The notes beneath the pieces are model-generated. The model was not told the DNA's origin and did no database searches. It worked only from the letters and a program-made list of their open reading frames with translations. Below are positions 25,978 through 63,633 of a stretch of 64,000 bases of DNA, in pieces. Position numbers and translations under genes: made by a program. The DNA is from a virus (lineage: Duplodnaviria; Caudoviricetes), in the IMG/VR virus record IMGVR_UViG_3300021399_000008, positions 1 to 64,000 of that record. The stretch is one strand, 5' to 3'. Position 1 is the stretch's first letter, and every line of letters begins with the position of its first letter.

Positions 25978-27153
25978 ATGGACTATATCCAGGATCAGCC
26001 CCAGGAGTTAAGCCGTCTCGAAGATGAGACGATAGAGCAGTACCTGATCCGTATTGCGACGATGAAAGAACAGAAATAGATTAAAGCCACATGGCTGGAT
26101 GTAGCCGTTCTGATGAACGAGGCTTCCGGTCTGAAGAGAGACGAGAGCCATTGGCGAAAGATGTATGCCGAGCTGAAGAAAGCCGACGAAGATATTTCTG
26201 TCAGCCTTGATACATACACCTACTTCGATGAGCTTGAGAAGACGAAGGTAAGAATCCGTGACCATCGTAACGCTCTGGCCCGTCAGATCCGAAATGAAGC
26301 TCGAGCAGAAGAATTGCTTGAAATTGTCCGAAACACTGTAATTCCGCTGCCTGAAATCGATTTCGAGCCTAAAGCCGTAACAACTGAACACAAGTGTCTG
26401 TATGCTCTTGTCTCAGATCTCCATTATGGAATCAGCTTTAAATCTGTAGCTGGATCCTACGACAAAGAAATAGCCAGGGAAAGAATGGCCAGATATGCCG
26501 CTGAGATTATCCGAATCGGGAAGGATGTAGATACACTCTACATTTCTCTGATGGGTGATATGATCAGCGGCGGTATTCATCCGTCAATCAGAGTAGAAGA
26601 AAGAGAGAACGTAGTTCAGCAGGTAATTGGTGCGGCTGAACTGATCTCAAAGTTTATCTATACTTTGTCTCAGCATTTCTTTAACGTAATCGTAAACAGT
26701 GTAGACGGAAACCACAGCAGAATCGAACGAAACACGGAAGATTCCGTACGAAACGAGAAGCTGGATATCCTGATCCCATGGTTCTGTAAAGCCAGACTGG
26801 CTGAACAGAAGAATGTGAAGTTCGTAGACTCAGAACTGGATTCAACGATAGCGAACTTCAACATTTACGGGAAGGAATACGTGGTTGTCCACGGTGACTA
26901 TGATCTTGACCTTCAGAAGAGTTCCGTCAGCCTCTCGAAGTTAATCGGGAAGAAGGTTGACTACTTCCTCTGCGGCCATATGCACGTACCTGAAGCCAGA
27001 ATAGAAGAGACTGGTTACATCCGTAACGGTTCTGTCTGTGGCTCAGGCGACGACTACACAATGAAGAAGAGATTGTTTGGTGTTCCTGCTCAGGTACTTC
27101 TGCAGTGTTCAGAGCAGGGAGTAGAAGCGATTTACCCGATAGTACTGAGGTGA
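25978..27153 (+). CDS. calcineurin-like metallophosphoesterase, with in-frame TAG at 26077
   Basis: SDLHYG, MGD, GNH, VHGD, GHMH motifs; RBS and ATG at 25978 in frame with the 26113 ORF. Confidence 0.85.
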
Positions 27154-27157
27154 TTAT

Positions 27158-27979
27158 ATGAGCCTTTTAAATGAAGACTGGGTATTCTCATACAGTCAGC
27201 TATCCGGCTTCGATGAGTGTCCTTACTCTCTGTATCTGGAAAAGATTGAGAAGAATCCTACTGTGCTTTCGAATGGTTTCGCTGAGTACGGGACTCTTAT
27301 CCATGATATTCTGGATGAGTGGGCAAAAGGGATCATCGACAGAGACGAGATGGTTCCAGTGTTCAAAGCCCGTTTCGGAAGAGAAGTACTGACTCCGTTC
27401 CCCAGAAGACTCAGAGATTACAAGGAAAAAGCTTTCGACCTCGGAGTGAAATACTTCGAGGACTTCGACAGCTTTGAGGGCTATGAGATTGTCTCCTCTG
27501 AAGACAAGTTCAGGAATAAGATCTGCGGAAGAAACTTCGTAGGGATTATTGACCTTGTTCTTAGAGATAAAGAGACAGGGAAACTCATAGTAGTCGACCA
27601 TAAGTCAAAGAGTCTGGCTACCTTCAAGAAAGAAGAAGACCATATGTACCGTCAGCAGTATCTGTACTCTCAGTATGTGTACGAGAAGTACGGTGAATGG
27701 CCTGAGACTCTGATGTTCAATCTCTTTAAAGAGAACGGGCTGAAGAAAACAAGACCTTTCTCGAAGGTAGAGTTCGACGAAGTAATGGTTTGGGCCAACG
27801 ATGTAATGGAACGGATGGAAACCTATGACCTGTTTGATTTCCTTCAGACGAAGGAAGTTCAGCTGACAAAGAAAGGAACGAAGAGAGAGGATATGTACTG
27901 CACAGAAATCTGCGATATGAGGGCAGTCTGTGAACAGGGTAATCCTGCTTTCTATAAGGATAGTTATGAGGAATTCTAA
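27158..27979 (+). CDS. PD-(D/E)xK nuclease (RecB/AddB/Cas4-like)
   Basis: SYSQL..F..CP, GIIDL, VDHKS, Q.YLY, C-terminal Cys cluster. Confidence 0.9.
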   Translation: MSLLNEDWVFSYSQLSGFDECPYSLYLEKIEKNPTVLSNGFAEYGTLIHDILDEWAKGIIDRDEMVPVFKARFGREVLTPFPRRLRDYKEKAFDLGVKYFEDFDSFEGYEIVSSEDKFRNKICGRNFVGIIDLVLRDKETGKLIVVDHKSKSLATFKKEEDHMYRQQYLYSQYVYEKYGEWPETLMFNLFKENGLKKTRPFSKVEFDEVMVWANDVMERMETYDLFDFLQTKEVQLTKKGTKREDMYCTEICDMRAVCEQGNPAFYKDSYEEF

Positions 27980-28017
27980 GAAAAAGAACTGACGAAAGCT
28001 GAAAGGAGGAACGACTG

Positions 28018-31000
28018 GTGGCACATGATTATGAACCATATCATCTGCACTCAATGTATTCGAATGCTCTGATGCCGCAGGTAGATTCGATGGCGAAGAT
28101 CGAACAGTATGCTGAAGTGATACACGAAAGAAATCAGAAGGTACTGTGTATTACAGAGCACGGCAACAGATCGAATGTATGGCTGCAGTTTGAGCAGGGA
28201 CAGAAGTATGGCCTGCTTCCACTGGCAGGAGCAGAAGCCTACTTCGTACCGAACAGAGACCCAGAACTGAAGGATAACAGGAACTTCCATCTGATTCTTA
28301 TCGCGAAGAACATGGAAGGTTTCTATCAGCTGAATACTATTCTCTCAGCTGCGAATATGACTGGGTATTACCGCAGAGCCCGTGTTGACTTTGATTTACT
28401 CAGCCAGCTTGACTACAGAAACTTTATCTGTACGACAGCCTGTGTCGCTGGTCCTGTCTCCGATCATGAAGGTGAACAATACTGTCAGAGACTGCACAGT
28501 ATCTTCAGGGAGAACTTCTATCTTGAGGTTCAGCCGCACCCTCAGAGAATTCAGATAGAACATAACAAGAGGATCATGGATCTGTACAGCAAGTATGGAT
28601 GGCCTCTGATCTTCGCGACTGACTCGCACTATGTAAAGCCTGAAGAGAAAGAGGATCGTAAGGAACTCCTTCTGTCAGCCTCTGGTCTCAGCTATGGCGA
28701 CGAGGATGAGTTCCTTCTTGACCTTCCAGATCCAGACGAAGCCTACAGGAGAATGGTTACTCAGGGGGTTCTGAGCCGCGCAAGAATCGAAGAGGCTATG
28801 GAGAACACTCTGATACTCAGAGAGTTTGAGGGTGTAAGCTTTGACCACGAAAGAAAGTTTCCGATCAGCAGACCTGACCTGACTCAGGAAGAGAGGAATA
28901 CTTTGTATAAGAGAATGGTCTGCTCAGGTTATATCGACAAGGCTGGAATGCCCAGCGAAGAGGAAGCCAAAGAGATCCATAAGGAACTGGATACGATTGT
29001 CGATACGAACAGCGCAGACTACTTTATCGGACTTCACGATATGATCAAGAAGGGACAGGAGAATGGCGGTATTCTGACGACTACCTCCAGAGGTTCCTGT
29101 TGTGGCTTCGTAAGTAATTATGCTCTCGGATTCACAACAATAAACCGATTCAAATCTCCTGTGAAAATGTACCCTGACAGATTTATCTCAAAGGCTAAGC
29201 TGGCTTCAGGTAGTATGCCTGATATAGACAGTAACCTCGCAAATGTTGAAGCTTTCGAGAAGGCGGGAAAGGAAATCTTCGGTGAACATGGCTGTTATCC
29301 TATGATTGCCTATGGCACAAACAAGACTTCCTCAGCCTTTAAGATGTTAGCCAGAGCCAGAGACCTTGACTTCCAGATATCGAACGCGATCTCGAAACAG
29401 ATAGCGACCTACGAACTTGATGTGAAGCACGCGAAAGAGAACAATGAAGACGATCCTGATTACGATGTCAACGATGACGTGCAGATCTCCGACTATGTTG
29501 AGGAGCAGTATCTTCAGTTAATCGAAGACAGTAAGCAGTATCAGGGGATTATCGTCTCAGTGACTCCGCATCCCTGTGCTCATCTTGTCTACCACAAAGA
29601 CCTGCGAAGAGAGATCGGTGTAATCAGACTGAAGGATAAGGCTGGTTCCAACGTTCCTCAGTACTGCGTCTATGTTGATGGTAAGACAGCTGATGAGTAC
29701 GGCTATGTGAAGAGTGACCTTCTTCGTGTCTCAGTCGTGAAGTTTATAAATGATACATTTAAAGCTATCGGAAGACCAGTTCCTACTTCTGATGAACTGA
29801 TCCAGTACGTCACAGATAATGAGGCTGTCTGGAAGATCTACGAGAATGGCTATACCTTCGGTGTGAACCAGGTGGAACAGGAGAAAACTCAGGAGAAAGT
29901 CAAGCGCTTTAAGCCACGGAATACTGTGGAATTAAGCGCTTTTATTGCGGCTATACGACCGGGAGCTAAGAGCTTAGTCAACGACTTCGTAAACAGGAAG
30001 CTGCACACATACGGTATTCCTGCGATGGATAAGCTTCTGAGATTAAACGGAGCTACAGGTGTGACTGGTCAGTCGAGTTTCCTTCTTTATGATGAGAATG
30101 TTATGACGCTTGCCGAGTCAGCAGGAGTAGATCCTGCCGACGCACAGGCTCTGATTAAGGCGATTAAGAAGAAGAAACACGACAAGGTAGCCGCCTATAA
30201 GGAACAGTTTATTCCTGGATTCAGGAAGTATCTGATTGAGAAGGAACACGCAGATCAGAAACTCGCTGAGAAAACAGCCGACGATGTCTGGACTGTGATT
30301 ATGAACTCAGCCAGTTATCTGTTTAATGCTTCTCATGCCTACGCTATGTGCCTTGACAGTCTGTACGGCGCGTACTTAAAAGTAATTGCTCCGTATGAAT
30401 TCTATACTGTTCTTCTGAAACACTACACGGAGAAGAAGAACAGCGAGAAGATCGCGAAGGCTATCTCGGAAATGAAAGCGTATATGGGGATCAATGTCGT
30501 GAATGGAAAATTCGGACAGGATAACAGAGACTGGTTCATCGATAAGGAACACAAGACAATCTCACAGAGTCTTCCGTCAATAAAGTTCCTGAATAGACAG
30601 AACGCTACGGATCTGTATGAGATTAAGGATCGCACAACGTTCTTCTCAGACTCAGACAGGCAGCTCCTCAATGAATACAATCATGCTATTGCGGAGAAGA
30701 ACGAGAAGATCCGTGAGTATAATGAGAAAGCTGAACAGGGAAAACGGAAGAAGAAGCTGAAGGATGAACTTCAGGGCATTGAAGTTAATGAAGTAAACTT
30801 CACTTACTTCACAGACTTCCTCAGGTTCGCCCAGATGCAAACTTCTCTCGGAACCCGTGAGTTGAAGATCCTGATCGAGCTGGATTACTTCTCGCCTTTC
30901 GGAAGGTCTGGGAAACTGATGAAGGTTTATAACGCTTTCTTCGAAGGTAAGGGAGAACTGAAGCCGCTGACAAAAGGGCTGAAGAATATAGAGAATATTC

Positions 31001-31407
31001 TCCTCAGACTTGAGGCCCTCAGGCAGTACGAAAAGAATCTGATCGACGAGGATCTGTGGATTGTCGACAGACTCACAGCTGAGAACGATAACATCGGACT
31101 CTGTCTCAGTAAGGATGACGAGGTTCCTTCGAACGTTTACTTTATCCAGACAGTAGACAATAAGTATGGCGGGAAGCTTGACCTCTACAGTATTCAGAGA
31201 GGTACAGCCGGACGAATGCGGATCAGGAAGAACCTGATCGAGAGTATGAATCTCGAGAAGAATGGCTGTATCGTAATCGATAAGTGGGCATCCAGACCTA
31301 AGTATTCCTATACGAACGGTAAGAGAACACCCAGCGGAGAGAATGAATTCTGGATAGAGAGATGCCACTTTCCGACAAGTAAAGCCAGTTAGAAAGAAGC
31401 GGTATAA
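28018..31407 (+). CDS. dnaE: DNA polymerase III alpha subunit (TAG at 31390; read-through ends at TAA 31407)
   Basis: PHP HLHS..S, TEHG, TDSHY; RGS, PDID, FNASHAYA. Confidence 0.95.
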
Positions 31408-31419
31408 GGAGTAGGAACT

Positions 31420-31775: not shown

Positions 31776-32333
31776 ATGTTTCAGTTACCTTAGGTCTTCG
31801 CGAGAATAGGCAAGAACTAGTATATTCAGGGCTCTCGGATAACGACTATCCAGTCTTTACAGTCTCTTCAGGCGAGAGCTATCTACAAAGCCGAACGTCA
31901 CGCCAAGACTTTAATAAACGGTGCTGCTCCTCACGCAGCATAGTCCCTTGTCTACCTTGATAACGGTCAGGTTATCTCCAGCAGTCTGACTCCGAGACAG
32001 ATTATCTCTTCTATGACTGATGCTACAGGAAAAGAATTTCGCAGGAAACAGAAGCGGAGTACTCAGAAGATAGAAGTAGTCGATGTGAAACTGGATCCTC
32101 CTGATCCTGAGACTGACTACGATGCCGAAGACGTCCGTATAGCCACTGATCCCGAACTTGAATACGAAGAGTATAAGGTTTCGGATGAAGAGCTTCTCGG
32201 TAATCAGTTTAATCCTGACGAGGAAGAAGAGCCTGACGAAGAGCAGATTACGATGGAAGAACTCCTCGCTGAAGAAGACGAGGAAGAGGAAGACGTAGGA
32301 CTCGACGAAGACGAAGAAGAAGATCCCGAATAA
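31776..32333 (+). CDS. RemA/DUF370-like protein with an acidic tail; three in-frame TAGs
   Basis: ARIGKN*YIQGSRITTI...LIN......SLVYLDNGQVISSSLTP aligns by eye with RemA (INIGFGNIVSANRIIAI...LIDAT...AVIITDSDHVILSAVQP); in frame with the 32013 ORF. Confidence 0.75.
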
Positions 32334-33547: not shown

Positions 33548-36035
33548 ATGAACGTAATCAAACGTGACGGCAGAGAAGTAGCTTTCGACGAACAAAAAAT
33601 AGTCGATGCGATTCTCTCCGCTATGCGTGAAACGGAAACAGGAACCGATGAGGCACTGGCCAGGTTTATCGCGAACAAGATCGCTATCTCGAATAAGGAT
33701 ATGACAGTCGAAGAGATTCAGGATCTCGTAGAGAATTACCTGATGTCAAGCGACAGGAAGGATGTCGCGAAACAGTACATCCTGTACAGAGCTGAGCGTA
33801 CACGGAAACGTCAGATGGGTTCTGATATTGTGCGTCAGGTATGGGAGAAGACGAATGCATCTAACGTTGTGAACTCGAATGCGAACGTAGACGAACATTC
33901 TTTTGGCGGTAGAAAGAACGAAGCTGCTTCTGCGATCCAGAAGATTATAGCTCTTGATTATAATATGAGTCCTGATATCTCAGCTGCCCATAAGGATGGC
34001 TGGATCTATGAACACGATCTGGACTTCTATAACTTAGGCGGTGCGAACTGCCTGTTCCTTGACTTCAAACACATATTCGAGAACGGGTTCTCTACCCGTA
34101 ACGGAGATGTGAGATCACCAAGTTCTTATTCTACTGCCTGTCAGCAGGTAGCTGTTGCTTTTCAGCTGCAGAGTCAGTGTCAGTTTGGCGGCGTAGCCAG
34201 TCTGCATATTGACTACGATCTGGCTCCGTATGTAGCCAAGTCGTTCAGAAAACATTACGAAGATGGCCTTAAGTGGATTGAACATATTAATCAGCCTGAA
34301 TTTGGAGAGCTGAAAGAGAAAGCTTCTGTCGGCAATCCTGATCCTGCTCATTTGTCAGCTTATGATTACGCAGTTGAGATGCTTGAGCGCGAAGGGAAAC
34401 AGGCAAGTGAAGCTCTCTACCATAACCTTAATACGTTGGAAAGTAGAGCAGGAAGTCAGGTAGATAAAGTTGCCTGACGTAGCGGCGACGCTATGGAAAA
34501 ATCAATCGGGCAAATACGGTAGAACTCTCACGCAGACAATACCGTGGTAATCGGATAGATTTCGTAAGGCTGTCCGACACCGTAACGCGTAGGTGGTGAA
34601 TAAATATAATCCACCCAAGAGTGTCCGACTTCCCTCGCGGAAGAAGATGTACGCTGAACCGTGCACGAATTTACGTGCAGTTATGGGTGTGAACCCCGGA
34701 AGTAGATGATAAAAAGCTTCTACGATAACATATTGACCTTTTACCTCTATTAACTTCGGCAGAGATATATCTCCTGAAGGAAGACTGGTAACAAGATGGC
34801 TGCTCGAAGCTTCCCTATCGGGTATAGGCAAGCACCATCTCACAAGTATCTTCCCGATCAGTATCTTTCAGCTGAAGAAAGGTGTTAACTCCGATCCCGG
34901 AGATCCTAACTACGATCTGAAACAGCTGGCTATTAAGTCCCTGTCCAGAAGAATTTATCCGAACTTCGTGAACTGCGACTATTCAGAAGCTCATGAAGAT
35001 TTGAATAACATCGATACTTTCTACGGTACTATGGGATGTCGGACGAGCATCGGTTTAGATGTTAATGGATTAGGATATCAAAGAGTAGGTCGTGGAAACA
35101 ATGTACCTATTACAATTATCCTTCCTAAGATCGGTATTGAATACGGTATTTGTACAGGAAAGAGACAGACTCCTGATCTCGAAGGATTCTGGAAGAAACT
35201 GGATGAGCTGCTTGCTCTGACAGAGAAAGCTTTCCTTGAACGCTGGGAAATCATGAAGAGTCAGAGTCCTAAAGCCGCAACATTTATGTATCAGAACGGA
35301 ACGATTGCCGATGCTGACAAATGTACCGACACAGTTGAGCCAGCTCTGATTCATAACACGTTTGCGTTTGGTTATATTGGTATCGCTGAGATGTGTGAAG
35401 CTCTCTTCGGTACGAACCATGCAAAGGACGCGAGAGCTCATGCTTTTGCTCTGAAAGTTGTAGCTCGGATTAACCAGTACGCTAAGGAATTCACTCAGAG
35501 AAACAAGCTGAATGGTTCCTGCTATGCCACTCCAGCTGAGAGTCTGTGCTACACAGCGATGACGAAGCTGAAGAGTCAGTATGGAATTATCCATAACGTA
35601 ACTGACAGAGACTGGCTCACGAACTCGCACCATGTTCCTGTGTGGGAGAAGGTTTCTATCTACGATAAGCTCAGGATTGAAGCTCCTTTCTGCAGATATC
35701 CTACTGGCGGCTGCATTACGTACATCGAATGCGAGTCGACTTTTATGAATAATACTCAGGCTATAGAAGATATTATTGACTATGCTTCGAACCTGGACAT
35801 TCCTTATCTTGCTTTTAATTTCCCGATTGACACCTGTCTGGATTGCGGATATCAGGGTGAGTTCGATAACGAATGTCCTGAATGCGGAGGAAAGAATATC
35901 CTTCAGCTGAGAAGAGTAACTGGATACCTGACTCAGGATTACAGGAACTTTAACCACGGAAAACAGGAAGAGGTTAAAGCCAGAGTAAAGCACTCTGCTT
36001 ATACTGACTTCGGAGGAAACAACTTTGGACGATAA
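33548..36035 (+). CDS. nrdD: anaerobic ribonucleoside-triphosphate reductase, join(33548..34461,34736..36035)
   Basis: ATP cone VIKRDGR; splicing restores ESRAGSQVPFTSINFG; MGCR, ATPAE, TNSHH, C-terminal CxxC pairs and RRVTGYL. Confidence 0.95.
34462..34735 (+). mobile_element. group I intron (274 nt, no homing endonuclease ORF)
   Basis: 5' exon ends in U with P1 GTCAGGT/GCCTGAC (U-G pair); terminal G; P7-like GCGTA/TACGC; removal restores the frame. Confidence 0.9.
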
Positions 36036-36990: not shown

Positions 36991-37185
36991 ATGAATATAT
37001 TTCAGGCTATAGCTAAGCTCACAAAAGAACCTAAAGGAGCTTATGCTTGTAGATTCGGCAAACCATGGCGGCTGGAAACGGCCAATGACTAGCTCTTCGC
37101 TATATCCGAAGGCGGTATGCTCCATATGTGGTGTCCTACTGTCGAAGATCTTCAGGCAGAAGACTGGATGGTAGTGAGGTGTTAA
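36991..37185 (+). CDS. DUF2829/Tad2-like small protein with in-frame TAG at 37090
   Basis: GGAGG RBS; MNIFQAI...W.PTVEDLQAEDWMVV C-terminal motif. Confidence 0.7.
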
Positions 37186-38821: not shown

Positions 38822-39127
38822 ATGCCGACACAGCTAAGATGGGTCCAAAGACCACCAAACCATGAGATACTCGTATAGAGTACAGATGAACAGGGTGACA
38901 ACGTCCTCGCTGATATTACCTACAGAAACGAAAGTAAGACAGAGTGGGCGTTCACAACGGCTATTAAACAGATTCCTACGATCTCAGCCGACAGTGACGT
39001 AACAGACACGAAGCGGTGTATTATCTACGATCTGATTAAGTTTTTCCAGGAGAGAAAGCATCAGAACGAAGAGATACTTGAGCAGTTGGAATCTATTAAG
39101 CCGAAAGTAAAGGAAGACCTGGAGTAA
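38822..39127 (+). CDS. hypothetical protein with in-frame TAG at 38876 (absent from track)
   Basis: GAGG RBS; a 101-codon frame fills the gap only if TAG is sense. Confidence 0.7.
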
Positions 39128-39145: not shown

Positions 39146-39219
39146 GCCGAAGTGGCGCAACAGGCAGACGCAGCGGACTTAAAATCCGTAAGTTGTGGGT
39201 TCGAGTCCCATCTTCGGTA
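39146..39219 (+). tRNA. tRNA-Leu(TAA) with a short variable loop
   Basis: cloverleaf; anticodon loop CTTAAAA; discriminator A. Confidence 0.9.
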
Positions 39220-39312
39220 CTCGTCAGGAGGAGTCTTGGCGATAAGTTTAGAGGAAGGGTACAGGGCATACACCCTTCCTCTGTCTTTATCTTGTTTTGT
39301 CCAGCCGCTCTC

Positions 39313-39388
39313 GCGGGAGTGGCGAAATTGGCATACGCGGCGTACTCTAAATACGCTAACTTTGAGGGTTCGAGTCCCTTCTCCCGTA
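39313..39388 (+). tRNA. amber suppressor tRNA (anticodon CTA) on a Leu-like body
   Basis: GCGGGAG/CTCCCGT acceptor, GCGTA-CTCTAAA-TACGC anticodon arm, TTCGAGT T-loop. Confidence 0.9.
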
Positions 39389-39419
39389 CTTACATAAAGT
39401 ATTGGGAAATTCGAAGCGA

Positions 39420-39548: not shown

Positions 39549-39577
39549 TTTACAAAGGAATCTCTGCAGGTTATAAT
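39549..39577 (+). promoter_or_regulatory. sigmaA-type promoter
   Basis: TTTACA-17 nt-TATAAT. Confidence 0.75.
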
Positions 39578-39753
39578 AAAGAGACTTACGAGAAACAGAG
39601 AGGTGGTTAACATGGTTATAAAGCTTATTTTGTAGACTGAACACACCTTAACGTATGACTGGTCTTATCGATCCCGCTGCAGAGATTCAGAAAGGGAAAT
39701 AAGAAGTGAGTAATACGTTAAAGGAGAGAAACTATGAAAAGGAAACGGTGAAT

Positions 39754-40554
39754 ATGGAGAATAATGAAAAGCTTATTATCGATGACTACGGAAACGGAAG
39801 ACTGGACTACATCGACAAGAGTAAGCTGAGATCAGGAATGCGGCTTCTCACATATCGTGAGGGCTGGATGGTTGTGATGCGGGATGTGAATCCCTTAATC
39901 TTCAGAGACAGAGATGTATTCGTTCTGGAAGACTGTGTGAGACCTTTCAGCGAGTGGAACGATGACCTGACGTTTAAGAACAGAGATATGCCCGGGTACG
40001 ATGTCGTAGCTGCGTGCTCGACAACAAACCTTGGCGAAGTAGTAAAAGGAAACCGTGATATCTACAAACAGGATGACGAGGAATGTTTCTGGAAGTCCGA
40101 CCTTGTGAAAGAGGCAGCTGTTGATCCGCAGAAAGCATACATGTTTGACCTGAAAGGATCACTAAGAACAGGTGACCTCGTGGAATTAAGGAACGGTAGA
40201 CGCTATGTTGTAATGTATAAGGTTTACGTCGGTGAAGTAGATGACGATCTGCCTTTCCATGTGCCGAACTACAGCGACCTGCTGATTGAACTGGAAGATC
40301 CAGACAATACTGTAAATCTTTGCCAGTATCAGACCGGACTCTGGCATACATATGACCACGATCTCGATGTTATGGCTATCGTAAAGCTGTCTTCTACAGA
40401 CTTCTCCGTGATGGGTAAGCTGAAGGATAAGAAATACGTAGATAAACTCTTCGAGGATACATGGTGGCGCAGAACACCGGAGATTGAACAGGCATTTAAA
40501 GACTGGATAGACAGGCAGGATTCCGATATTACGGATGATTACCTGCCGTTCTGA
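39754..40554 (+). CDS. hypothetical protein with two tandem LR(S/T)G..V.LR.G domains
   Basis: internal duplication visible. Confidence 0.8.
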   Translation: MENNEKLIIDDYGNGRLDYIDKSKLRSGMRLLTYREGWMVVMRDVNPLIFRDRDVFVLEDCVRPFSEWNDDLTFKNRDMPGYDVVAACSTTNLGEVVKGNRDIYKQDDEECFWKSDLVKEAAVDPQKAYMFDLKGSLRTGDLVELRNGRRYVVMYKVYVGEVDDDLPFHVPNYSDLLIELEDPDNTVNLCQYQTGLWHTYDHDLDVMAIVKLSSTDFSVMGKLKDKKYVDKLFEDTWWRRTPEIEQAFKDWIDRQDSDITDDYLPF

Positions 40555-40750
40555 AACTAAATAATTAAGAGGAGTAGCCGTAGGAAACTGCGGCTACTTT
40601 TTAATTTATCTCTACCAGAGGTGTAACTATGAAGTACAACGTAACGAGTATCGAGAACTACCTCGACAGACTGAACGAGGAAACAGAAGAAGATCAGCCT
40701 TTCTACAAAGACTAGTCTGCTGAGGAAGTAGAAAGGGAGGAGGTGGAAGA

Positions 40751-41035
40751 TTGTTCGAAACCGTTCTTGAGTACTTCGACGACAGCGAGTGCCGGGTCTA
40801 CACGAACGAAAGGAAAACGATAAACAGAGTCCTCGGGTTCGCTGAAGAATACCCGGATAAAGTCAGACTGCTGAATGAACCTAAAGATAACGAAGGTTAC
40901 TTAAACGCCTATATCCCCAGAGACTGGGTAGTAATACGGCCTAAAACTACGAGAGAACTTACTGAAGAACAGAAACAGGCTCTCCGTGACAGGCTTAACA
41001 GTTACAGAAAGAAGGCAGAAACAGAAGATGAGTAA
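40751..41035 (+). CDS. phage hypothetical protein (RELTEEQK..L..RL)
   Basis: GGAGG RBS, TTG start. Confidence 0.75.
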   Translation: MFETVLEYFDDSECRVYTNERKTINRVLGFAEEYPDKVRLLNEPKDNEGYLNAYIPRDWVVIRPKTTRELTEEQKQALRDRLNSYRKKAETEDE

Positions 41036-44406: not shown

Positions 44407-44480
44407 GCTATCGTAACTCAGCAGGTTAGAGTGTCGGCCTTATAAGCCGCTGGTCGTGGGTTCGAATCCCACCGATAGTA
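44407..44480 (+). tRNA. tRNA-Ile(TAT)
   Basis: cloverleaf with anticodon loop CTTATAA. Confidence 0.9.
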
Positions 44481-44518
44481 CGAAAAAATAAAAACAGATA
44501 GTACGAAAAAATAAAAAC
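44474..44518. repeat. 22-bp tandem duplication of the tRNA 3' end and trailer
   Basis: GATAGTACGAAAAAATAAAAAC at 44474 and 44497. Confidence 0.85.
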
Positions 44519-45743: not shown

Positions 45744-46631
45744 ATGGCACTTGATATGTATAAGATTATTACTGACAGGATTCTTGAAGACCTGAAGAAG
45801 GGTGAGATCCCGTGGAATAAGCCATGGGTGAATACGAATGGTAATTATGTTGCCCGTTCCCATGAGAATGGCCGTGTGTATTCTCTCCTGAACCAGATGC
45901 TGGTCGGAATGCCCGGTGAATACGTGACGTTTAACCAGGCGAAGAAGGAAGGCGGCACGATTAAGAAGAACGCGAAGGCTAAGAAGGTTGTGTTCTTTAA
46001 GATGCTCGAGAAGAAGGACCGTGAAAGTGATGATGACGATAAGTGGATTCCTTTCCTGAAGTACAGTAATGTCTTCCACCTCGATGATACTGAGGGTGTC
46101 GAGCATAAATACGTGTTTACCGACGAGTCTCTGCACAACGACAACCTGAATATCGAAGAGATCGATAAGGCTGTGAAGGACTATGTAGACCGTGAGCACG
46201 TAACGATCAGGAACTATGAACAGAACAGGTCTTACTACAGCCCTGCTGAGGATGAGATTATTCTGCCTCAGATGTTCCAGTTTGCGAACTCTGAATCTTA
46301 TTACGCTACTCTGTTCCATGAGATGGGCCACAGCACTGGAGCAAGGAACAGACTCTACCGTGACTTCTCCGGCAACTTCGGAACGAAAGCCTACAGCCGT
46401 GAGGAGCTGGTAGCTGAGATTACCTCTGCTGTTCTCTGTAACCACTTCGGTATCGATACTGAGAAGGTTCAGAGAAACACTTCTGCCTATGTTCAGAACT
46501 GGATCTCCGTTCTGGAGAATGATACAAGGGCTGTTGTGTGGGCAGCAGGAAGAGCAGAGAAGGCTGTGAAGCTGATCCTGAATATTAAAGATGAACCTGC
46601 AGAAGCTGACGAGAAAGAAGGAGGAAACTGA
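45744..46631 (+). CDS. ardC: ArdC-like antirestriction ssDNA-binding/zincin protein
   Basis: IPWNKPW, YSLLN, TFNQAK..GG, YYATLFHEMGHSTG, YSREELVAE, Y.QNW. Confidence 0.9.
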   Translation: MALDMYKIITDRILEDLKKGEIPWNKPWVNTNGNYVARSHENGRVYSLLNQMLVGMPGEYVTFNQAKKEGGTIKKNAKAKKVVFFKMLEKKDRESDDDDKWIPFLKYSNVFHLDDTEGVEHKYVFTDESLHNDNLNIEEIDKAVKDYVDREHVTIRNYEQNRSYYSPAEDEIILPQMFQFANSESYYATLFHEMGHSTGARNRLYRDFSGNFGTKAYSREELVAEITSAVLCNHFGIDTEKVQRNTSAYVQNWISVLENDTRAVVWAAGRAEKAVKLILNIKDEPAEADEKEGGN

Positions 46632-50800: not shown

Positions 50801-53800
50801 ACCGACGAAGAGTGGCGCGATTGGGCTGAGAACTATCAGAAGAACTTTATCGACTCAGCTGATCCTGACCTTGTAATCACAATGGTTGACTGCCACATTT
50901 AAAGGAGATAAAGAATGGACAAAGGAGGATGAAACCTGATGGATCAGGAACGTCTTAATCAGCTGGATTCGTATATTGGTATTGCGAACAACGTAGGGTT
51001 CAAGACATTAGAAGTAGATGTCGATCTTCTAAATGAAGCTGTGACTGAGCTTAAGAATAAGGTTCCGAGTACGCCTACATTCTGGCAGGGTAAAGCCTAC
51101 TGCGGTAAATGCGACAGCAGGATTCCAAAGAAACAGGTAATGAAATCACATTACTGTGCGAGTTGTGGCTGGCCTATTCAGTGGCCGAGTAAGAAGCCTG
51201 ATTATGGAGTAGGAAGGGATGCATAAAATGACTGAACTGAACCGAGTGATCTACGATATCGAACGGTGCACCTGTCACGTCCCTGATGCTTGCCGTGACT
51301 GCTCGAAATACAAGGGAGAGTACACGCCTGACTGCATGGAACAGTTGCTGACTGATGCGCTGAAACTGCTGAAAGAACAGCCTGAAATCGTTCATTGTAA
51401 AAACTGTAAATGGTTTAGCGAAAAAGGATTCTGCAAACACCCTGACGGTGGAGCTGGAAACATTCGGCCTGCAGATTGGTTCTGCGGTGATGGGAAAAGG
51501 CGGGAAGTGGAATGAAAGAGATCATCATAGAAGTGCCTGACAGATTTGGACAAGAGCTGAAACCTGAAAAAGTAAACAGTAAGATCAAAGGGGAACTTGT
51601 CCGGTGCGGAGACTGTAAACATTATAAGGACGGATTTTGCTACAACCCTAACACTTTTGATGCTGAAAAAATATGCGGAAATACTTCGCCAGACTGGTTC
51701 TGCGCTGATGGGAAAAGGCGGGAAGTGGATTGACAAATAAAGATGCTATCAAATGGCTTGGCAACCTAAGAAATGATCTGGGAAATCCGCATTATGAATG
51801 CCTTTGGCCTTACGCACAGGCACTTGATGAAATTGCTGAGATGCTGGAAGAACAGGAAACAGAACCGCAGATGGTACTATTTAGAGACGATGGCGAGTAT
51901 TGTCCGCATTGTTCGACGATTACAAGCAGAGCAATGGGAGTACAAAAACTGCATCGTGGCACAAGGTTTTGTCCGTACTGCGGAAAGGCTGTGACGTGGA
52001 ATGGTTGACAGAGGGAAAGTTATTAAAGAACTCATAAGATGCGATATTCCATATCCGTTACTATGCGATACCATTGCCTTGCTAACAGAGCAGGAACCTG
52101 TGAAGCCGATCAGATTAGAAAACTGGTGGAAATGTCCATATTGCAGTGGGAACATAGTTGCTAACATGAATTATTGTCCGAGATGTGGAAGGGCTGTGAA
52201 TTGGAATGAGTAATAAAGGCAGAGTAAAACAGGGACTGACGTGCTGTCAGGTTAGTCATAAACTGTATTGCGACAAGTGTCCGTATAAATATAAATACTC
52301 AACAGGAATTCTCGACTGTACAGCTGATCTGGCTGCGGATGCTTTAGAACTGATAAGAGAATACGAGAAGTACAGGTGGCAACCAGCAGAACAAAAGCCG
52401 AAAGAACCTGGGTGGTACTGGGTGTATGCTCCTACTTATCAAGGTGGATCGTCAACCTCTCGTGAACACCACGACGGAATCATGTTCGCGAAATGGAGCG
52501 GTACAGCCTGGAGTATAGAACGTGGCTACTACAACAGACCTGGCTGTGTGGAAGCATGGATGTTTCTTCCTAAGTCGCCAGTGAAGGAGAATATTAGATG
52601 AGCGAATGGATCAGCGTTAAGGACCAGATGCCATCAGATAATCAGATGGTAATCGGTTATACACCAGTTGATGGTCGTATGTTCGTAGGATTCTATAGAA
52701 CATTCCACTATTCACACATAGACAAACCTTTGGGTTATTGGTACATCGGGACGGCTATGCGATCCACAAAGCGTATGACAAAAAAAGTAACGCACTGGAT
52801 GTCATTGCCTAGTTCACCAAAGGAGGAGAACTAAGATAATGACCGATAAAGATCTTCTGAATGAGGATATGAAGAACAGGATCATAGAAGCTGCGCATAA
52901 AGCGATCAGCATGAGCCGTGAAGATTCAGATTGTGTTGATCGCACAGAAGTAGAAACCGAGGTTCTTCTTGGATTGTTGAAGATAGTAAGTATGCAGGAT
53001 GAGAACTCAGATGAATGGATCAGCGTTAAGGACCATCTTCCTCCGAGCCAGAAACATGTTCTGGCTGAGACAGACAAGTATGAATGCGTAGCCTTCTACG
53101 CTGAAAGATTCTCTGTCTCAGTCGGATACTATACTGACGATGAGATTGATTGTGAATACAACGAAGACTTGGACGAATACTTTCTGGCCGAAGGATGGTA
53201 CGAGGTTGTCCATAACTGGGAAGAATATTCAAGTATTACGATTGAAGACGAAGTGATTGGCTGGATGGATTTGCCACGAAGATCGAAGGAGTAAGTATGA
53301 TCTACTGGGATTACACGCTTAACTGGAAATATATCGTCGACAAAATGGAAGAGAAGTTTGGACTTAAACCAGACTCTACAGAGAAGCTTTCTATGGGTGA
53401 GATTGAGAGGAAGATCGAAGAGATCTGGGTAGAATATGTAGATATTTTGGATAAGAAATACACAGAAGCTGAGATTGTAGATTCTCTGGACAAGGAGATA
53501 GTGTGATGAATTCGCCATTGACCGCTGAAGAAGTAGACAAGGTAGCAAGACAGTACCTGTGGAAACGGCACTGGCTGGAGAGAAACACAGGCGAATAGTA
53601 TATTATCTAGATGGACATGATTGCTTATTCCAGCAGAGGTAAGAATCTGATCTATCGCTTTACAGATCCTGAGCTGAGTACCTTCAGTCAGGAATTTTTT
53701 ATGTGTCTGTTTTCAGAATACGGAGAGACATGGAGACTGTGGGATAACGAACCTACAGAAGAAGAAAGGAAAACTGCTGAGTGGAAGACAGCTTAAAGAT

Positions 53801-57436: not shown

Positions 57437-58311
57437 AAATGAAAATAACGATAGAAATTCCACCTGAATACGAGAGTGAATTTGAAAAAGACAAATTCGA
57501 AAATACGCTCCAACGAATGAAAGCCGATGCACATTGTTTAGCAGGAAACTATGAGAAAGAAACTATAAACATGCTGATAGAAGCATTTAAGAACGCAAAG
57601 TCAGTGAGTTAAATAGGAGTTTAACATGTATATATTTGTAATACTTGCCGTTTTTGATTCGGTGATTATATGTCGCGCGATTATCAATATCGAAATTGAG
57701 ATTGAGAGAATCAGGAAATGTTTAGAAGATCACAAATGACAAAAATTGGAGGATAAAACATGACGGTCAAAGATGCAATGGACACGATTAAAGCTGCGAA
57801 AGTATACTCCAAATTTCTGTGTCAACTGGCTGACAAAGAACAGGACGAGCATTTTAAAGACTACTTAGAAGAATCATCCGAATTGCTTGAAGAATATGTG
57901 GGTGTGCTTGAACAAATGAAGGTGCAGGGGACTTAAATAGGAGTTTATAATGATTGTTATAGGCAAACGTGCGTACGGCACGGATCGGTTCAGATGGTTT
58001 TATCACCCGTTGTTGCCGCAGAACGAAAAGGAATTCTTTCATTTCTTTGTCTGGTTCGGCAAGAATTGGTATATATGTTGGCATAAGAAAGGTAAATAAC
58101 CATTTGAAAAAGGTTGGGCTTAATCCATGATTGAAAAGTTTCACATAGATGGCGGCGTCAACGATTATGCTACGATCCAAGAACCTGATAAGCACGAGGA
58201 TGAACGCAAGCAGTTGATCAATGAAGGATATCAACTTTGGAGCAGATATGTTAAAGACGGTAAGCAAGAAGAGCTGTGGGTTAAATAACCATTTAAGACT
58301 GGAGGAATAAA

Positions 58312-58521
58312 ATGTCTTTTGCAGATGCTGTTTTAGCTATGAAACAGGGAAAGAGAGTGCGTCTGCCGTGGTGGGGAGGATACTGGTACATCGCAAACAA
58401 CACACTCAGAATACATTGTGCAGACGATGACGACTTTAATGCATTTAGCAGAGAAAACACAGAACCGCTTTACACTTTGTCATTTATGACTGCAAACTGT
58501 TGGGAGTTAGTCCAGGATTAA
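58312..58521 (+). CDS. DUF2829/Tad2-like protein
   Basis: MSFADA..AMK.GKRVR...W.G...A..WELV. Confidence 0.7.
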   Translation: MSFADAVLAMKQGKRVRLPWWGGYWYIANNTLRIHCADDDDFNAFSRENTEPLYTLSFMTANCWELVQD

Positions 58522-58713
58522 ATAACCCGAGGTGGGATCAATGCACAAATATATTCGTAGTATTCTTAGGTTTACCATTCGACACAAAAAGATCGATCAG
58601 ATTTTCAGCAAATGGCAGTGGTTTAGGATTCTGTGCTACGAGGAAGCGCAAGCGGTTATTGGAAATAGGCCGTGGATGTAATTTAAATAACACTGTTACA
58701 AGGAGAAAATGAA

Positions 58714-58944
58714 ATGTACGTCAGAGATTTGAACGGCGGAAAACCAATTGTATTCAAAACTGTGGTTAGTTATTGTCCTCCAGATTGCGGAGGTGCGGAC
58801 GAAGATGAAATTGATTATGAGGCGTTTTGCCCGGTTTGCGATCGTAGATTCGATGATTTAGATCACGACAAGTTTTGTAGAGAGTGTGGCACAAAATTGT
58901 ACTGGCCTGCCAAATGGCCAATAATTAAGAAAATCGATAATTAA
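58714..58944 (+). CDS. Zn-ribbon protein
   Basis: CPVC...FCRECG. Confidence 0.75.
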   Translation: MYVRDLNGGKPIVFKTVVSYCPPDCGGADEDEIDYEAFCPVCDRRFDDLDHDKFCRECGTKLYWPAKWPIIKKIDN

Positions 58945-58960
58945 ATAACTCTTTAATTTT

Positions 58961-59053
58961 CTGACATATGCCGGATGCCATAGGGCGGCGTAGTGGTGAC
59001 TTTCGGTGGCTCGGTTCGACTCCGGGGCTGTCCGTGGTTTTAACTTATGTCAG
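58961..59053 (+). ncRNA. tRNA-like fragment inside a terminal stem
   Basis: T-arm CTCGG-TTCGACT-CCGGG; outer stem CTGACATA/TATGTCAG. Confidence 0.45.
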
Positions 59054-59484
59054 TAAACCGAACCTTAAATAGGAGCTTATAATATGAAAGCAATTATAAC
59101 ATTTAACGCCCATCTTGAAATTGATATTGATGACAAATCGCGGGATGAAATAGTTTCAGAGGACGTGCAAATCGTACAGATGAAACATCTGCTAATGGAA
59201 GAATGCGGTTGCGAGCACGTTGAAATAAGCGAGTATCATATGGAACTTAAATAACCCATTAAATAAAGGTAGGCGGCGAAGCGAAATGAAAATAAGAGTA
59301 TGGGCGCATACGGATGTAGTCGGGAGTATGACCGAAGACGTTATAGAAGTTGAAGACGGTTTAACTGAAGAACAAATTGACGAAGAGGCAAGAGATTATA
59401 TTTTCAATTTTGTCGAATGGGGATGGGAAACAGAGCAAGATGATTAACAGAGACGAGATTAAAACTATAACGGAGTGATTGTGA

Positions 59485-59700
59485 ATGACATTCGCAGAAG
59501 CGTACCGTGAGATGCGTAACGGAAAGTGTATTGCCCACGAAGAATTTGACGGAGACTATTGGACATGGGAAAACAATACCGTGATGTTCAACAGCAATAC
59601 TGGTCTTCGTTATCCTATACAGGGTGCGCCTGATATTGGCCGTGTCTTTGATTGTATCGTAGAAGATAAATGGAACGTAGTTTATCCTGAATTCGAATAA
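59485..59700 (+). CDS. DUF2829/Tad2-like protein
   Basis: MTFAEA...M.NGK.I......G...DKWNVV. Confidence 0.6.
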   Translation: MTFAEAYREMRNGKCIAHEEFDGDYWTWENNTVMFNSNTGLRYPIQGAPDIGRVFDCIVEDKWNVVYPEFE

Positions 59701-59733
59701 GTCTGAGTAAAAGAGTAGAAGGAGATTAAGGTT

Positions 59734-62287
59734 ATGACGATTAATGAACTGGTTGAGATCCTTGGACGTTTCGATGGAATGACTGAAGTGTGTGTGACTG
59801 TTGACAGGAAGCATAAAGGTATTAAAGGTATCAGCAATATTAAGAAGCTGACGAATGAAGACGGTGTTGTAACTGAAGAGAACCAGGTACAGATTAAGCT
59901 GAGGTAAATATGAGACCAGTAGATTGTGACGCTTTGGTCACATTCCTGCGCAACATGGCAGGGTGCGATACATGTGACAATTACGATAGAATAAAATGCA
60001 GGGCCTGCCCGTGGGATGACGCGATTACTGCTGTAGATGACTTCGGCGACAACCATCCTCTTGGCTTTGGACGCTGGAAGAAAGAACTCGGAGGCGCTAG
60101 TCCAGGTGGAACTCCTACTTATGTCTGCTGTTCCTGTGGTGGATCAGAGCATTTGTATGGAGCAGAATACCCAAAGAAGAGGCTGATCTGTAAACAGTGC
60201 GGATCGATTAACGTATACCCGTGGGAGAAAGTGGAGATAGAATAATGGTTGTATATTCAGTTACGCTGACGAGTCCCAGTGGAACCCGTGCCGCAGACAG
60301 CGACGGAAACTACGCTGAGACTTTGTACACCACGAGAGAGATAGCGCAGAAGAAAGCTGATATCTTAAACACATTAGGCGATTACAACCTTTGGCGCTGG
60401 GGCGTCGAGGAAAAGAATATCAGGGACTCCGTAGAATCGCTCTGGTTCTACGGAGAATATTATCCTTATTCAGGTAAGCTGGAGATATATGAAGGCTGCG
60501 CGTACGAGGATATACCTGAGGTAAGAAGAGATTATCCTGATATTGTGTACGGAGAATTGGCTAAGAACCCGTCTTATATAGTGTATGAGTTCGTTATGCC
60601 GTACGATGAGTCATTGAGAACTTGGGAAGATGTAGCAGCCTGTGTCCGCAGCAGATATGAGCTGATCACGAAAGAGTTTAAGCGCACAAAAGGTGAACTC
60701 GGAGAAGTGATCTATACTGAGAAGAAACGGAAGAAGAAAAAGGATGAGTAACTGGAGAGACAATCCGATTACCGAGAAGCAGGTTGAATATATAAGGCAG
60801 ATGCAGCTGGACGCAGAGATGAATGGCGCGATACCTTTGCCTCCGTTCAGAGGAAGTACCAGAGGAGAAGCCAGTGATTACATCGACGCGAATAAAGGCA
60901 GGCAATACGAAGCCTTCGATTACTACGGCCATGGCGATAACTATGGAGACAGAGTATGAGTAACTATAAATATATATGGGACGAGCTGAAGGAAACAATC
61001 CATGAACTGCATGAAGCAAACACAGACAAGCCTGATGTCGAGAACGTGACACGGTTTCTTGAGAACTTGATGAATGTCAAGGAGAAGAAGAATACCGATA
61101 TCAGGGACTGTGCAGCTATGTGGTGCGACGATATCAGTTTCTGCGGAGAAGAGTGTGATTGGCTCGACTGCCCCAGGAACAGTAAGAACATTCGAGATAA
61201 GACAGTACCGCACTCTTATATCGTTGGAACACCTGACGATTGTCCGAAGAAACTGGAAGGAGCAGTATCAGCTGTATGAGCAAACAGAGCAAACAGAACA
61301 AACAGACTGAATACCACGTCGGAGCTTCGGATATCAGCGGGCTTGTCTATATAGGCAGAGCTACAAAAGAAGACGGAGTTTTCTGGTGGAAGGATAAAAG
61401 CGAAGGAACCAGTGAAGCTATTAACGCTGTGATGGGCCATATGCTGCACAAGATAAAACCAGGAGAGAATTCGACAGCTTATATGAATACAACTCGTGAC
61501 GGCAGGTATCTGAGGTTGACACTGGAAGTAACTGATAAGAAACCTGCGTGGCTGGAGGAAGAGGATGACCTGTAATCGAGACTGTGCGCACTGCTGTTAC
61601 TCTCAGCTGATTAAACAGAGTGGATACTGTTCGAGTCCTGGATAGACCTGTAATGGAAACTGTTCCAGCTGCCAGCACTATGTTGTACTGAGATGGAAAT
61701 GGAGATGCGGAAGAGTATGACAGGACGAGAGTTTATTAAATGGATTCTGGATAATCAGGTAGAGGATTGTCCTATCGAGATTGTATATAGAACTCCTGAT
61801 GGAAAATTCTTCCCTGAGACTGATAAGTATTTTGTTCTGGATATCGATGAGAAAGGGAAGGATGAGTTCGGCTGGAACTACAGGAGGATACTGTTGTGAC
61901 GTTTGTGAACTTTAACTTCAAAGGATACGTAGATCCGTGGCTTGTGAATGTCAGCCTGGTTACTGACATTATGTATGACAAAAGTAACAACCAAACGATT
62001 ATCTACTTCCTGTCAGAACCGGGGAGACGGACTGTTGAAGGAAACGTAGTCGACCATATTATAGAGAAGATGAAGAAAGCTGGAGTAAACGTAGTATGAA
62101 GTTTATAAGAATAGACCTGCATAACGATCCAGATCCGTGGTATGTGAACATGGATAAAGTAACAGATTTTTACTACAACAGCGGGACAAAGAAAACGTAT
62201 GTGACTATTGTAGGAGAGGAAAACGAGAGAGTATTCGATGGAAACATCACCACTCAGCTTCTGAATCCTTCACTTTTATGGAGCTGA
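59734..62287 (+). CDS. ~10 small accessory genes, including two paralogs at 61896..62099 and 62096..62287
   Basis: coupled ORFs with RBSs; DPW.VN...VTD..Y duplicated. Confidence 0.7.
61565..61720 (+). CDS. small Cys-rich protein with in-frame TAG at 61643 (absent from track)
   Basis: MTCNRDCAHC...PG*TCNGNCSSC; the duplicated TCN..C..C motif spans the TAG; ATGA overlap with the next gene. Confidence 0.7.
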
Positions 62288-62299
62288 GAGATTTGATAT

Positions 62300-62329
62300 T
62301 TGACATAACGGCTGGCAGTAGGATATGAT
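62300..62329 (+). promoter_or_regulatory. sigmaA-type promoter of the integrase, overlapped by an inverted repeat (62311-62341)
   Basis: TTGACA-18 nt-TATGAT. Confidence 0.6.
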
Positions 62330-62361
62330 CTTACTGTCAGCTGTTCTTTTCGGAGGGTAAG

Positions 62362-63633
62362 ATGAGTATAGATATAGAAAGTATTAAATAGATCGTACAT
62401 GAAACTCTGAAAGAATCGCTGGCTATGTACCTTGAAAACTCAATGTTTCCAGGTTTCCTCAGACCAGAGAAAGAAGAGGAAACCATGGGTGATTTCAGAT
62501 CATTCGTAAATATAGGAACAAGAGAGAAGCCTGTGATGAAGAGGTTAGCCGCGAAGAGCCAGCAGGAACTGAACGACAGGATCGTAAAGGCTTACGTAGA
62601 TTCAGGAAGAATATGGGAGTTTTTGGAGTTAAAATCGGACTCTGAGAATAAACCCAGGGAAACATTCGGGCAGTATGTTGAACGCTGGATTTCGCTCTAT
62701 AAAGTCAATAAAATACGTGGAAACACACTGAAGGATTATAAGACAATACTGACAGGATATCTTATACCGGAGTTCGGGAACAGAGAGTTCGCCTCTATAA
62801 CGACAGATGACTTCCAGAAGTTCCTGAATAAGAACAAACATTTGTCGATGAAGTACCTGACGAACATAAAGATTCTGTTTGGATCTATAGCTAAGGATGC
62901 TGTTGAGGACGGAGTTATAGATAAAGATCCTACTGCGAGCAGGAAACTGTTTATACCTTCGACGAAGAAGAAGGAACGTAAACCTTTAAAGAAGGAAGAG
63001 TATCTGGAAATTCTCGAAGAAGTTAAGAAGCTGAAAGGAAGATTGTATCTTTTGATTGTTCTGCTTATGTTAAGTGGGCTGAGAAGAGGAGAAGTCCTGG
63101 GGCTGAAATGGGAAGACTTCTGCTGGGATGAAGGATACTTCGTAGTTCAAAGGAACGTGACCTTCTCGAAAGGAATATCTGAAGTAGGCGAGACTAAGAC
63201 TGAGTCTGGAAAGAGGAAGGTTCCTATATTAAAAGAACTCAGAACTTTTCTTGAGCCTTATAAGAAGGAATCTGGTTTTATTATCGAAGCTAAAGGAAGA
63301 GATCAGCAGCCAATCTGCAAGTCGACCTTCGACAGAGACTGGTACCAGCTGAATAAACTGATTAACCTGCACGGAGCTACACCTCATATCTTCAGGCACA
63401 CATTCCTGACATTACTGGCTGCGTCTGGGGTAGACATTAAGACTCTGCAGACGATAGCCGGACACAGTAATGCTGAGGTAACAATGAGAGTGTACGTACA
63501 TCCTGTTGACTCAAATATAGTAAAGGCAGGAGCAATGTTCAGTAAGTCAGTCTTTGATAATGTTGACTGGACTAAGTACGAAGAGATTACGGAGAAGTCT
63601 GAGATCGAAGAAGAAGTAGATAACGTAAGTTAA
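62362..63633 (+). CDS. int: tyrosine integrase (N-terminal extension contains TAG at 62389; alternative start 62485)
   Basis: GLRRGE, KT..G.R, HIFRHT, AGH, Y; GGAGG RBS at 62352. Confidence 0.95.

Follow-up and report, generated by a model that had tools for sequence, protein, structure and literature searches.

Amber codons read as sense, most likely as leucine, in a complete phage genome with a tRNA-Leu-like suppressor

TAG is a leucine codon in NCBI genetic codes 16 and 22, used by chlorophycean and Scenedesmus mitochondria, and in Escherichia coli the amber suppressor supP, a tRNA-Leu with the anticodon CUA, inserts leucine at UAG in competition with release factor 1 (RF1). Among phages whose code departs from that of the host, Borges et al. 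(bioRxiv 10.1101/2021.08.26.457843) described only TAG-to-Gln and TGA-to-Trp changes, and the integrases of the Garnet and Topaz prophages were found to avoid recoded stops (same source). Cook et al. (PMC11210395) treated TAG recoding as translation table 15, with a gain in coding density of ~20 points. Here we analyze TAG codons in the phage of IMG/VR record IMGVR_UViG_3300021399_000008, with a focus on its first 64,000 nucleotides (bases 1-64000 of the 116,328-bp record; hereafter the window), for which a sequence-only reading had claimed TAG as a sense codon, with gut phages of code 15 (TAG-to-Gln) as the known precedent. The amber codon of this phage has likely been reassigned to leucine by way of a phage CUA tRNA of the tRNA-Leu lineage. 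In the literature searched, whose coverage was incomplete, with many subscription papers outside it, neither TAG-to-Leu nor TAG-to-Ser was found to have been described for phages.

The phage resembles the recoded gut phages (crAss-like, Lak, Garnet, Topaz) in its presumed standard-code hosts (Clostridia), in the in-frame TAGs of its conserved genes, in its own CUA tRNA, in the higher TAG content of late structural genes and in the gain in coding density. It differs from them in that TAG most likely denotes leucine and not glutamine, and TAG is sparser here, at 1.3 per 1000 codons, with a density gain of ~4 points against ~20 (PMC11210395). Its TAGs are also concentrated in the first 50 codons of genes, and neither a release factor nor a synthetase gene was found in it. 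Unlike those of Garnet and Topaz, its integrase carries a conserved TAG (codon 10) behind a strong ribosome-binding site. With codes 16 and 22 the phage would share both the assignment and the route to it, a Leu-type CUA tRNA, which is possible since leucyl-tRNA synthetase (LeuRS) ignores the anticodon; those codes, however, belong to organelles with their own translation, whereas here a virus would impose the reading on a standard-code bacterial ribosome against RF1. Amber suppressors of the supP kind are host mutations giving partial suppression, whereas the present tRNA is phage-borne and short-armed, and essential genes of the phage itself would depend on it.

TAG as a sense codon

Genes were called with our own simple codon-score program, run under alternative stop sets. 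Opening TAG raised coding density from 0.843 to 0.876 over the genome (0.825 to 0.846 in the window and 0.864 to 0.913 in the rest, gains of 2.1 and 4.9 points), and it yielded fewer and longer genes. A second density figure went from 0.809 to 0.851, with the mean gene length rising from 190 to 213 amino acids (aa) and the total coding score by 405. The TGA-sense and TAA-sense readings fared worse than TAG-sense in the same program. As a control, six relatives without a CUA tRNA were passed through the same caller and changed in density by no more than 0.004; two relatives with CUA tRNAs gained 4-8 points under TAG-sense.

The effect extends to the virion module, which lies on the minus strand at 64 to 113 kb, outside the window, and encodes terminase, portal, major capsid and tail proteins and a 4802-aa protein. 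With TAG opened, this module resolves into stop-to-stop open reading frames (ORFs) of 4809, 1477, 1000 and 951 codons; only under this reading are its terminase, portal and capsid genes intact, and all terminate at TAA or TGA. For the capsid, portal, terminase, tail, Dit-like, RemA-like and Tad2-like proteins, matches to PHROG and Pfam families continue through the TAGs. The giant ORF of 4802 codons contains six TAGs and is situated in the tail module upstream of the Dit-like gene (L004:5537-19945, genome 85096-99504, minus strand). It has a counterpart in relatives, e.g., one of 4224 codons in G001; when its first 900 residues were used as a query, no homolog in the size range 2641-8404 aa turned up. 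For the portal, a relative with 82% identity is shortened at the same point as the fragment called for the phage under code 11, which leaves no residue opposite the TAG.

TAG is also retained in sister phages. It is kept at 16 of 16 sites in L174, whose proteins are 87-100% identical, at 4 of 4 sites in L173, at every site covered in the near-identical contigs L006-L009, and at 4 of 6 sites, including 62389, in L184 (93.8% nucleotide identity). Asked whether sisters carry CAG in place of TAG, the comparison returned TAG at 20 of 22 testable sites; within the window it covered only the sites 61643 and 62389, the near-identical IMG/VR contigs being without the region 25.9-40.9 kb. As L173 and L174 keep every TAG, they are uninformative on the amino acid. 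Taken with the density gain and its negative controls, the matches across TAGs and the giant late ORFs, this retention makes it essentially certain that TAG is a sense codon in this phage, as the sequence-only reading had proposed.

One line of support in that reading stood only in part. That almost no gene ends in TAG holds as a count (3 of 112 window genes), but TAG stops are likewise scarce across the family, at 2.6-6.3% of genes in the standard-code relatives G006, G008, G009, G010, G012 and G013, so that their rarity is not informative by itself here. Low TAG-stop use in standard-code relatives may represent a pre-adaptation that makes amber capture cheap.

The suppressor tRNA and the residue inserted

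The CUA tRNA was confirmed at 39313-39389 on the plus strand (77 nt) by ARAGORN, by the Rfam tRNA model (50.9 bits) and by alignment with tRNAs of relatives. It is one of three tRNAs in the genome, next to a paralog with the leucine anticodon UAA and a short variable arm (39146-39220, plus strand, 75 nt) and a tRNA with the anticodon UAU (44407-44481); all three score well above the Rfam tRNA threshold. The CUA tRNA has a leucine-type D-arm and T-arm, a G1-U72 pair, the discriminator A73 and a variable region of ~8 nt. Its D-arm reads GTGGCGAAATTGGCATACGC, that of the tRNA-Leu(UAA) of G001 reads GTGGCGGAATCGGCATACGC; its T-arm is that of the tRNA-Leu(UAA) of G006 and G009, and its acceptor stem is GCGGG...CCCGU followed by A73. 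Identity amounts to 78-79% with the neighbouring UAA tRNA and to 79-81% with the tRNA-Leu(UAA) and Leu-type CUA tRNAs of relatives, the best match being the Leu-type CUA tRNA of G005 (81%). D-arm, T-arm and acceptor stem thus match tRNA-Leu and not the tRNA-Gln(UUG) of the family, and by sequence the CUA tRNA belongs to the tRNA-Leu(UAA) lineage of the phage family. The exact stretch was present in no other viral contig searched. Directly downstream of the tRNA pair and upstream of the gene 39706-40554, a near-consensus sigma-70-like promoter was observed at 39549-39577 (TTTACA, 17 nt, TATAAT; 11 of 12 matches).

The phage proteins, with X at each TAG, were aligned to ~90 related loci and eight whole related genomes, and the residues opposite TAG were read off. 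Pooled over ~570 residues from ~80 related loci, leucine was the most frequent of these (L147, I68, V62, A49, Y42, M31, Q9). Among single sites, capsid [TAG]DFLN stands against LDFLN in 48 of 52 relatives, RNGWRE[TAG]SFTLP of a tail protein against RNGW(K/R)ELSF, and QLP[TAG] of the RemA-like protein against QLPL. Residue 106 of the terminase, a TAG, is L or I in every relative, and L in P0002, the only mid-range terminase relative (77% identity). A likelihood for each candidate residue was then computed on non-overlapping longest ORFs from an empirical substitution table built on the same alignments, self-calibrated and with one observation per column; in calibration with sets of 12 known columns, the true residue was recovered in 95-100% of trials. 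Over 19 TAG columns, the log-likelihoods were V -55.1, L -55.8, M -56.4, I -57.7, Q -64.3 and S -65.2. TAG therefore very probably encodes an aliphatic residue, most likely leucine as in code 16, and very probably not glutamine; leucine itself we regard as the likely meaning.

Several observations weigh against leucine. In about one third of the TAG columns the aligned residue is polar (K, E, D, Q) or Tyr, and one such column holds a lysine conserved in relatives of the RemA-like protein. The four differences between TAG and a sense codon in the comparison with L184 are all CAG/Gln or GAG/Glu and none is TTG: L184 has CAG at 61643, in a Cys-rich ORF, and GAG at 65726, and it has TAG where the phage encodes Glu (gene 64771-65112) and Gln (gene 67320-67925). 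The tRNA adds a further difficulty, as the CUA tRNA and its UAA paralog have a variable region of only 5-8 nt, while bacterial tRNA-Leu is defined by a long variable arm. Short-arm tRNAs with leucine anticodons nevertheless recur in relatives (G012, UAA, 75 nt; G004, CAA, 74 nt), which suggests that they may be functional, their charging being a prediction from sequence. In the family, short tRNAs of 74-77 nt with UAA, CAA and CUA anticodons were seen to coexist with normal tRNA-Leu genes of 82-87 nt; short-arm examples lie at L167:2785-2859 and at 51537-51610 of G004.

The exchanges with L184 bear first of all on glutamine, the meaning under code 15 and the one with a precedent in crAss-like, Lak, Garnet and Topaz phages (Borges et al., bioRxiv 10.1101/2021.08.26.457843). 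The CAG at 61643, the TAG facing Gln in gene 67320-67925, the two TAG/Glu exchanges and the E, K or Q found in certain columns would all agree with it. Codon use speaks against it: CAG is abundant (27.8 per 1000 codons) and CAG-to-TAG would be a synonymous transition, so TAG read as glutamine should give Q-rich columns, and no column dominated by Gln was seen. Several TAGs occupy conserved Leu or aliphatic columns, the log-likelihood of Q is ~8.5 units below that of Leu, and the Leu-type D-arm, G1-U72 and A73 of the tRNA do not match the family's tRNA-Gln. We consider glutamine unlikely, and the code-15 meaning is not upheld. The residues seen in the polar columns and in the L184 exchanges are just those whose codons lie one nucleotide from TAG. 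If TAG is leucine, its only synonymous single-nucleotide neighbour is TTG, which is rare (4.1 per 1000); the neighbours CAG, GAG, AAG and TAY together make up ~150 per 1000 codons. Most new TAGs should therefore arise from non-synonymous hits at tolerant sites. To regard the Gln/Glu exchanges with L184 as single-step non-synonymous origins of this kind is reasonable but not proven, and they would fit glutamine too.

Less likely still is another aliphatic residue, Val, Ile or Met. The column likelihoods of V, L, M and I fall within 2.6 log units, the bootstrap winners were V 453, L 303 and M 171, and two well-conserved TAG columns are Val (residue 121 of the Dit-like protein and residue 24 of a scaffold-like protein); it counts against leucine that the alignments alone cannot pick among the aliphatics. 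The tRNA points to one of them. LeuRS ignores the tRNA anticodon, whereas the valyl-, isoleucyl- and methionyl-tRNA synthetases (ValRS, IleRS, MetRS) need their cognate anticodons, which CUA does not offer. A tRNA of tRNA-Leu descent together with an anticodon-blind LeuRS would settle the tie towards leucine. In addition, a single step separates TAG from TTG, every Val, Ile or Met codon is at least two steps away, and in relatives with Leu-type CUA tRNAs the analysis gives Leu without ambiguity.

That the TAGs are real stops, be it through errors in sequencing or assembly, through recent nonsense mutations or because the genome is decaying, with the CUA tRNA incidental, is very improbable. At 2 of the 6 sites shared with it, L184 does carry a sense codon (CAG, GAG), and several TAG-bearing window ORFs are orphans without homologs. 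Against this stand the 20 of 22 sites at which TAG is kept, in independent assemblies from other samples and amid 1-13% amino-acid divergence. The essential capsid, portal, terminase and tail genes would all be broken, in a genome that is complete with terminal repeats and with conserved homology on both sides of its TAGs. Pyrrolysine decoding, suggested only by the CUA anticodon and the automatic ARAGORN label 'tRNA-Pyl', was rejected on the architecture of the tRNA and is the least probable of all: the tRNA aligns with tRNA-Leu and has a normal D-loop (GG) and the T-loop TTCGA, neither of which is found in tRNA-Pyl.

Relatives served as controls, and there the method gives clear answers. G004 carries a long-arm Leu-type CUA tRNA, and 36 of its 59 testable TAG columns are Leu-dominated; in the likelihood analysis leucine comes out first in 1000 of 1000 bootstraps (L -133.9, M -159.1, Q -191.7). 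The TAGs of G001, L018 and L032 fall opposite Ser or small residues, for example in two terminase columns with S in 68 of 82 and 70 of 84 sequences and in a portal column with S in 61 of 68, and serine is the best-fitting residue for G001 in 689 of 1000 bootstraps. G001 (107,106 bp) and G003, the record behind L018, have CUA tRNAs of 88-89 nt that are evident copies of tRNA-Ser(UGA); in G001 the CUA tRNA adjoins tRNA-Ser(UGA) (L132:16071-16247), and the G003 locus is L102. Judged by columns and tRNAs, TAG probably encodes serine in sister phages of the G001 and G003 type. These TAG-to-Ser relatives (L030/G001, L018/G003, L032) have the same virion module as the present phage, with terminases 46-49% identical, and in both cases the suppressor is copied from one of the phage's own tRNAs. 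They differ in that theirs is a long-arm CUA paralog of tRNA-Ser(UGA) and their TAGs lie at Ser or small-residue columns. The family thus appears to hold standard-code, TAG-to-Leu and TAG-to-Ser members, in which the amino acid would track the type of suppressor tRNA.

TAG-bearing genes and a possible mechanism

In all, 42 TAG codons were found in 28 of 146 called genes (~1.7% of the presumed Leu codons). Their density is 0.82 per 1000 codons in the plus-strand genes of the window and 1.77 in the rest of the genome (Fisher P = 0.02), i.e., the usual enrichment of TAG in late genes holds in this phage. The sequence-only reading had taken sparse TAG as a sign of timed or early-stage recoding; the sparsity is borne out, and the picture is refined in that window TAGs are sparse mainly because the window is the replication, or early, half of the genome, the late half being twice as dense. 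The claimed absence of TAG from large core enzymes is not significant, with ~4 expected and 1 seen (Poisson P = 0.09). Within genes, 24 of the 42 TAGs lie in the first 50 codons, where 9.0 were expected (P < 2e-4), and the bias persists among sites spanned by homolog alignments (17 of 34, P = 2e-4). It recurs in G004 (31 against 16.4 expected), unlike in the Ser-type G001, which has no 5' bias. A caution here is that 5' TAGs such as 51210 and 22233 may come from wrong start calls. For the base that follows TAG, no significant preference was seen (A in 18 of 42, P = 0.23).

In the window, TAG triplets were confirmed at 26077, 31390, 31791, 31818, 31941, 37090, 38876, 40713, 53596, 53608, 61643 and 62389, each in frame with an upstream ATG preceded by a Shine-Dalgarno motif, and the TAG genes are thus RBS-led (that is, led by a ribosome-binding site) as claimed. 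The motifs are AAAGGA, AGGTGG, GGAGGAG, GAGGAA, AAGGAGA, GGAGGAAGAGG and GGAGGG; no such motif precedes the first start codons past the TAGs (26113, 32013, 53611 and 62425). The claim failed for the TAG at 39633, whose ORF has neither a start codon nor a ribosome-binding site and was not called by the gene caller.

The genes concerned are all on the plus strand. A calcineurin-like phosphoesterase (25978..27153; Pfam Metallophos_2; ribosome-binding site at 25978) has TAG 26077 at codon 34, and its alignments to 7 relatives begin at residues 1-17, upstream of the TAG. The RemA-like gene (31776..32333; Pfam and PDB RemA alignment) has the highest TAG density of any window gene, with TAGs 31791, 31818 and 31941 at codons 6, 15 and 56; its Pfam match, residues 10-77, crosses two of them, and codon 6 is Leu in relatives. 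In the small Tad2-like (anti-Thoeris) protein (36991..37185; Pfam), TAG 37090 at codon 34 is crossed by the Pfam match (residues 31-62) and lies opposite Ile in the PDB alignment to SPO1 Gp34.65. The tyrosine integrase (62362..63633; Pfam Phage_integrase; ribosome-binding site GGAGGG) has TAG 62389 at codon 10, a site that is conserved in L184 and that the homologs in G006 and G013, aligning from residues 1-3, cover.

The remaining genes are small. A Cys-rich ORF of 51 codons (61565..61720), with TAG 61643 at codon 27, has the ribosome-binding site GGAGGAAGAGG before ATG 61565. Three orphan ORFs, for which homolog searches gave nothing, were called from ribosome-binding site and coding score: 38822..39127 (101 codons; TAG 38876, codon 19), directly upstream of the tRNA pair; 53506..53796 (96 codons; TAGs 53596 and 53608, codons 31 and 35); and the weak case 40629..40823 (64 codons; TAG 40713, codon 29). 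For the ORF 51204..51515, with TAG 51210 at codon 3, ATG 51219 may be the true start, which makes the case uncertain.

Other TAGs look like former stops with back-up terminators. The code-11 TAG stops at 17569, 31390 and 8792 have an in-frame TAA or TGA 11, 4 and 26 codons further on. In the DNA polymerase III alpha gene dnaE (28018..31407; Pfam), TAG 31390 is codon 1125 of 1129 and, as had been described, is followed after four codons by TAA at 31405, just ahead of the ribosome-binding site of the next gene; the alignments of most relatives stop at residues 1110-1117. This TAG was probably once the stop of the gene, with the TAA as its back-up, and TAG 17569, codon 128 of a 138-codon ORF (17188..17604) with TGA 11 codons on, is probably a former stop as well.

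Mechanistically, host LeuRS would charge the phage CUA tRNA with leucine, and UAG would be read as Leu in competition with host RF1; a domain search found no RF-1 domain in the phage genome. The CUA tRNA would be transcribed with the early and middle plus-strand replication genes. Since its gene lies in this module, TAG genes, which are mostly late virion genes but include the RemA-like, Tad2-like and integrase genes, would be completed only once the suppressor tRNA has accumulated and is abundant. These genes typically have one or two TAGs within 50 codons of the start, and a TAG so early would make a failed attempt at translation cheap. At former TAG stops, the end of dnaE among them, translation would now continue to a back-up TAA or TGA close by. 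All of this is inferred, the timing included.

Genome context and significance

The IMG/VR record represents a complete phage, with direct terminal repeats of 127 bp and 100% completeness by CheckV. The window is nearly all plus-strand and contains the module of replication and nucleotide metabolism, made up of primase/helicase, DNA polymerase III alpha, RNase H, a PD-(D/E)XK nuclease, NrdD, an RNA ligase, an anti-restriction protein, the Tad2-like protein and the tyrosine integrase. When 24 kb of the window were compared by megablast with 50,697 GenBank phages, no match was obtained. Relatives of the terminase were found in ~80 IMG/VR contigs and in metagenome-assembled genomes labelled Lachnospiraceae (RUG rumen bin), Acutalibacteraceae and other Clostridia; from these labels, the host is probably a gut or rumen Clostridium-class bacterium.

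Two further features of the early region were noted. NrdD is split (window 33548-36035): the ORF 33548-34477 contains the ATP-cone domain and Pfam NRDD positions 2-157, and the second part, in another frame at 34737-36035, corresponds to Pfam NRDD positions 158-562. No Rfam intron model matched the gap of ~260 nt between them, even at E <= 1. The early genes also include a reverse-transcriptase-like 'polymerase' phrog_2825 (15096-16235), the Tad2-like anti-Thoeris protein (36991-37185) and the anti-restriction phrog_7245 (45744-46631), which together suggest a counter-defence set.

We give about even chances to the broader proposal that the meaning of the amber codon is labile between close relatives in this family of ~100-kb phages of gut and rumen Clostridia. 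Amber would have been captured at least twice by phage-borne tRNAs, by a copy of tRNA-Leu here, in a form that lost its long variable arm, and by a copy of tRNA-Ser in sisters, while other members kept the standard code; its meaning would be set by whichever anticodon-blind enzyme is exploited, LeuRS or seryl-tRNA synthetase (SerRS), and the few 5' TAGs of this phage would act as cheap translational gates that open once the suppressor tRNA has built up. For recoded phages, the only codes available in gene callers and databases are 15 (Gln) and 4. Should TAG indeed be leucine here and serine in the sisters, public proteins of the family would be fragmented or carry the wrong residue, and phage recoding would not be limited to the Gln and Trp synthetases, as had been proposed (bioRxiv 10.1101/2021.08.26.457843), LeuRS and SerRS being exploitable too. 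The family would then offer a natural series, from standard code through sparse and denser leucine recoding to serine recoding, in which the capture of a stop codon may be studied.

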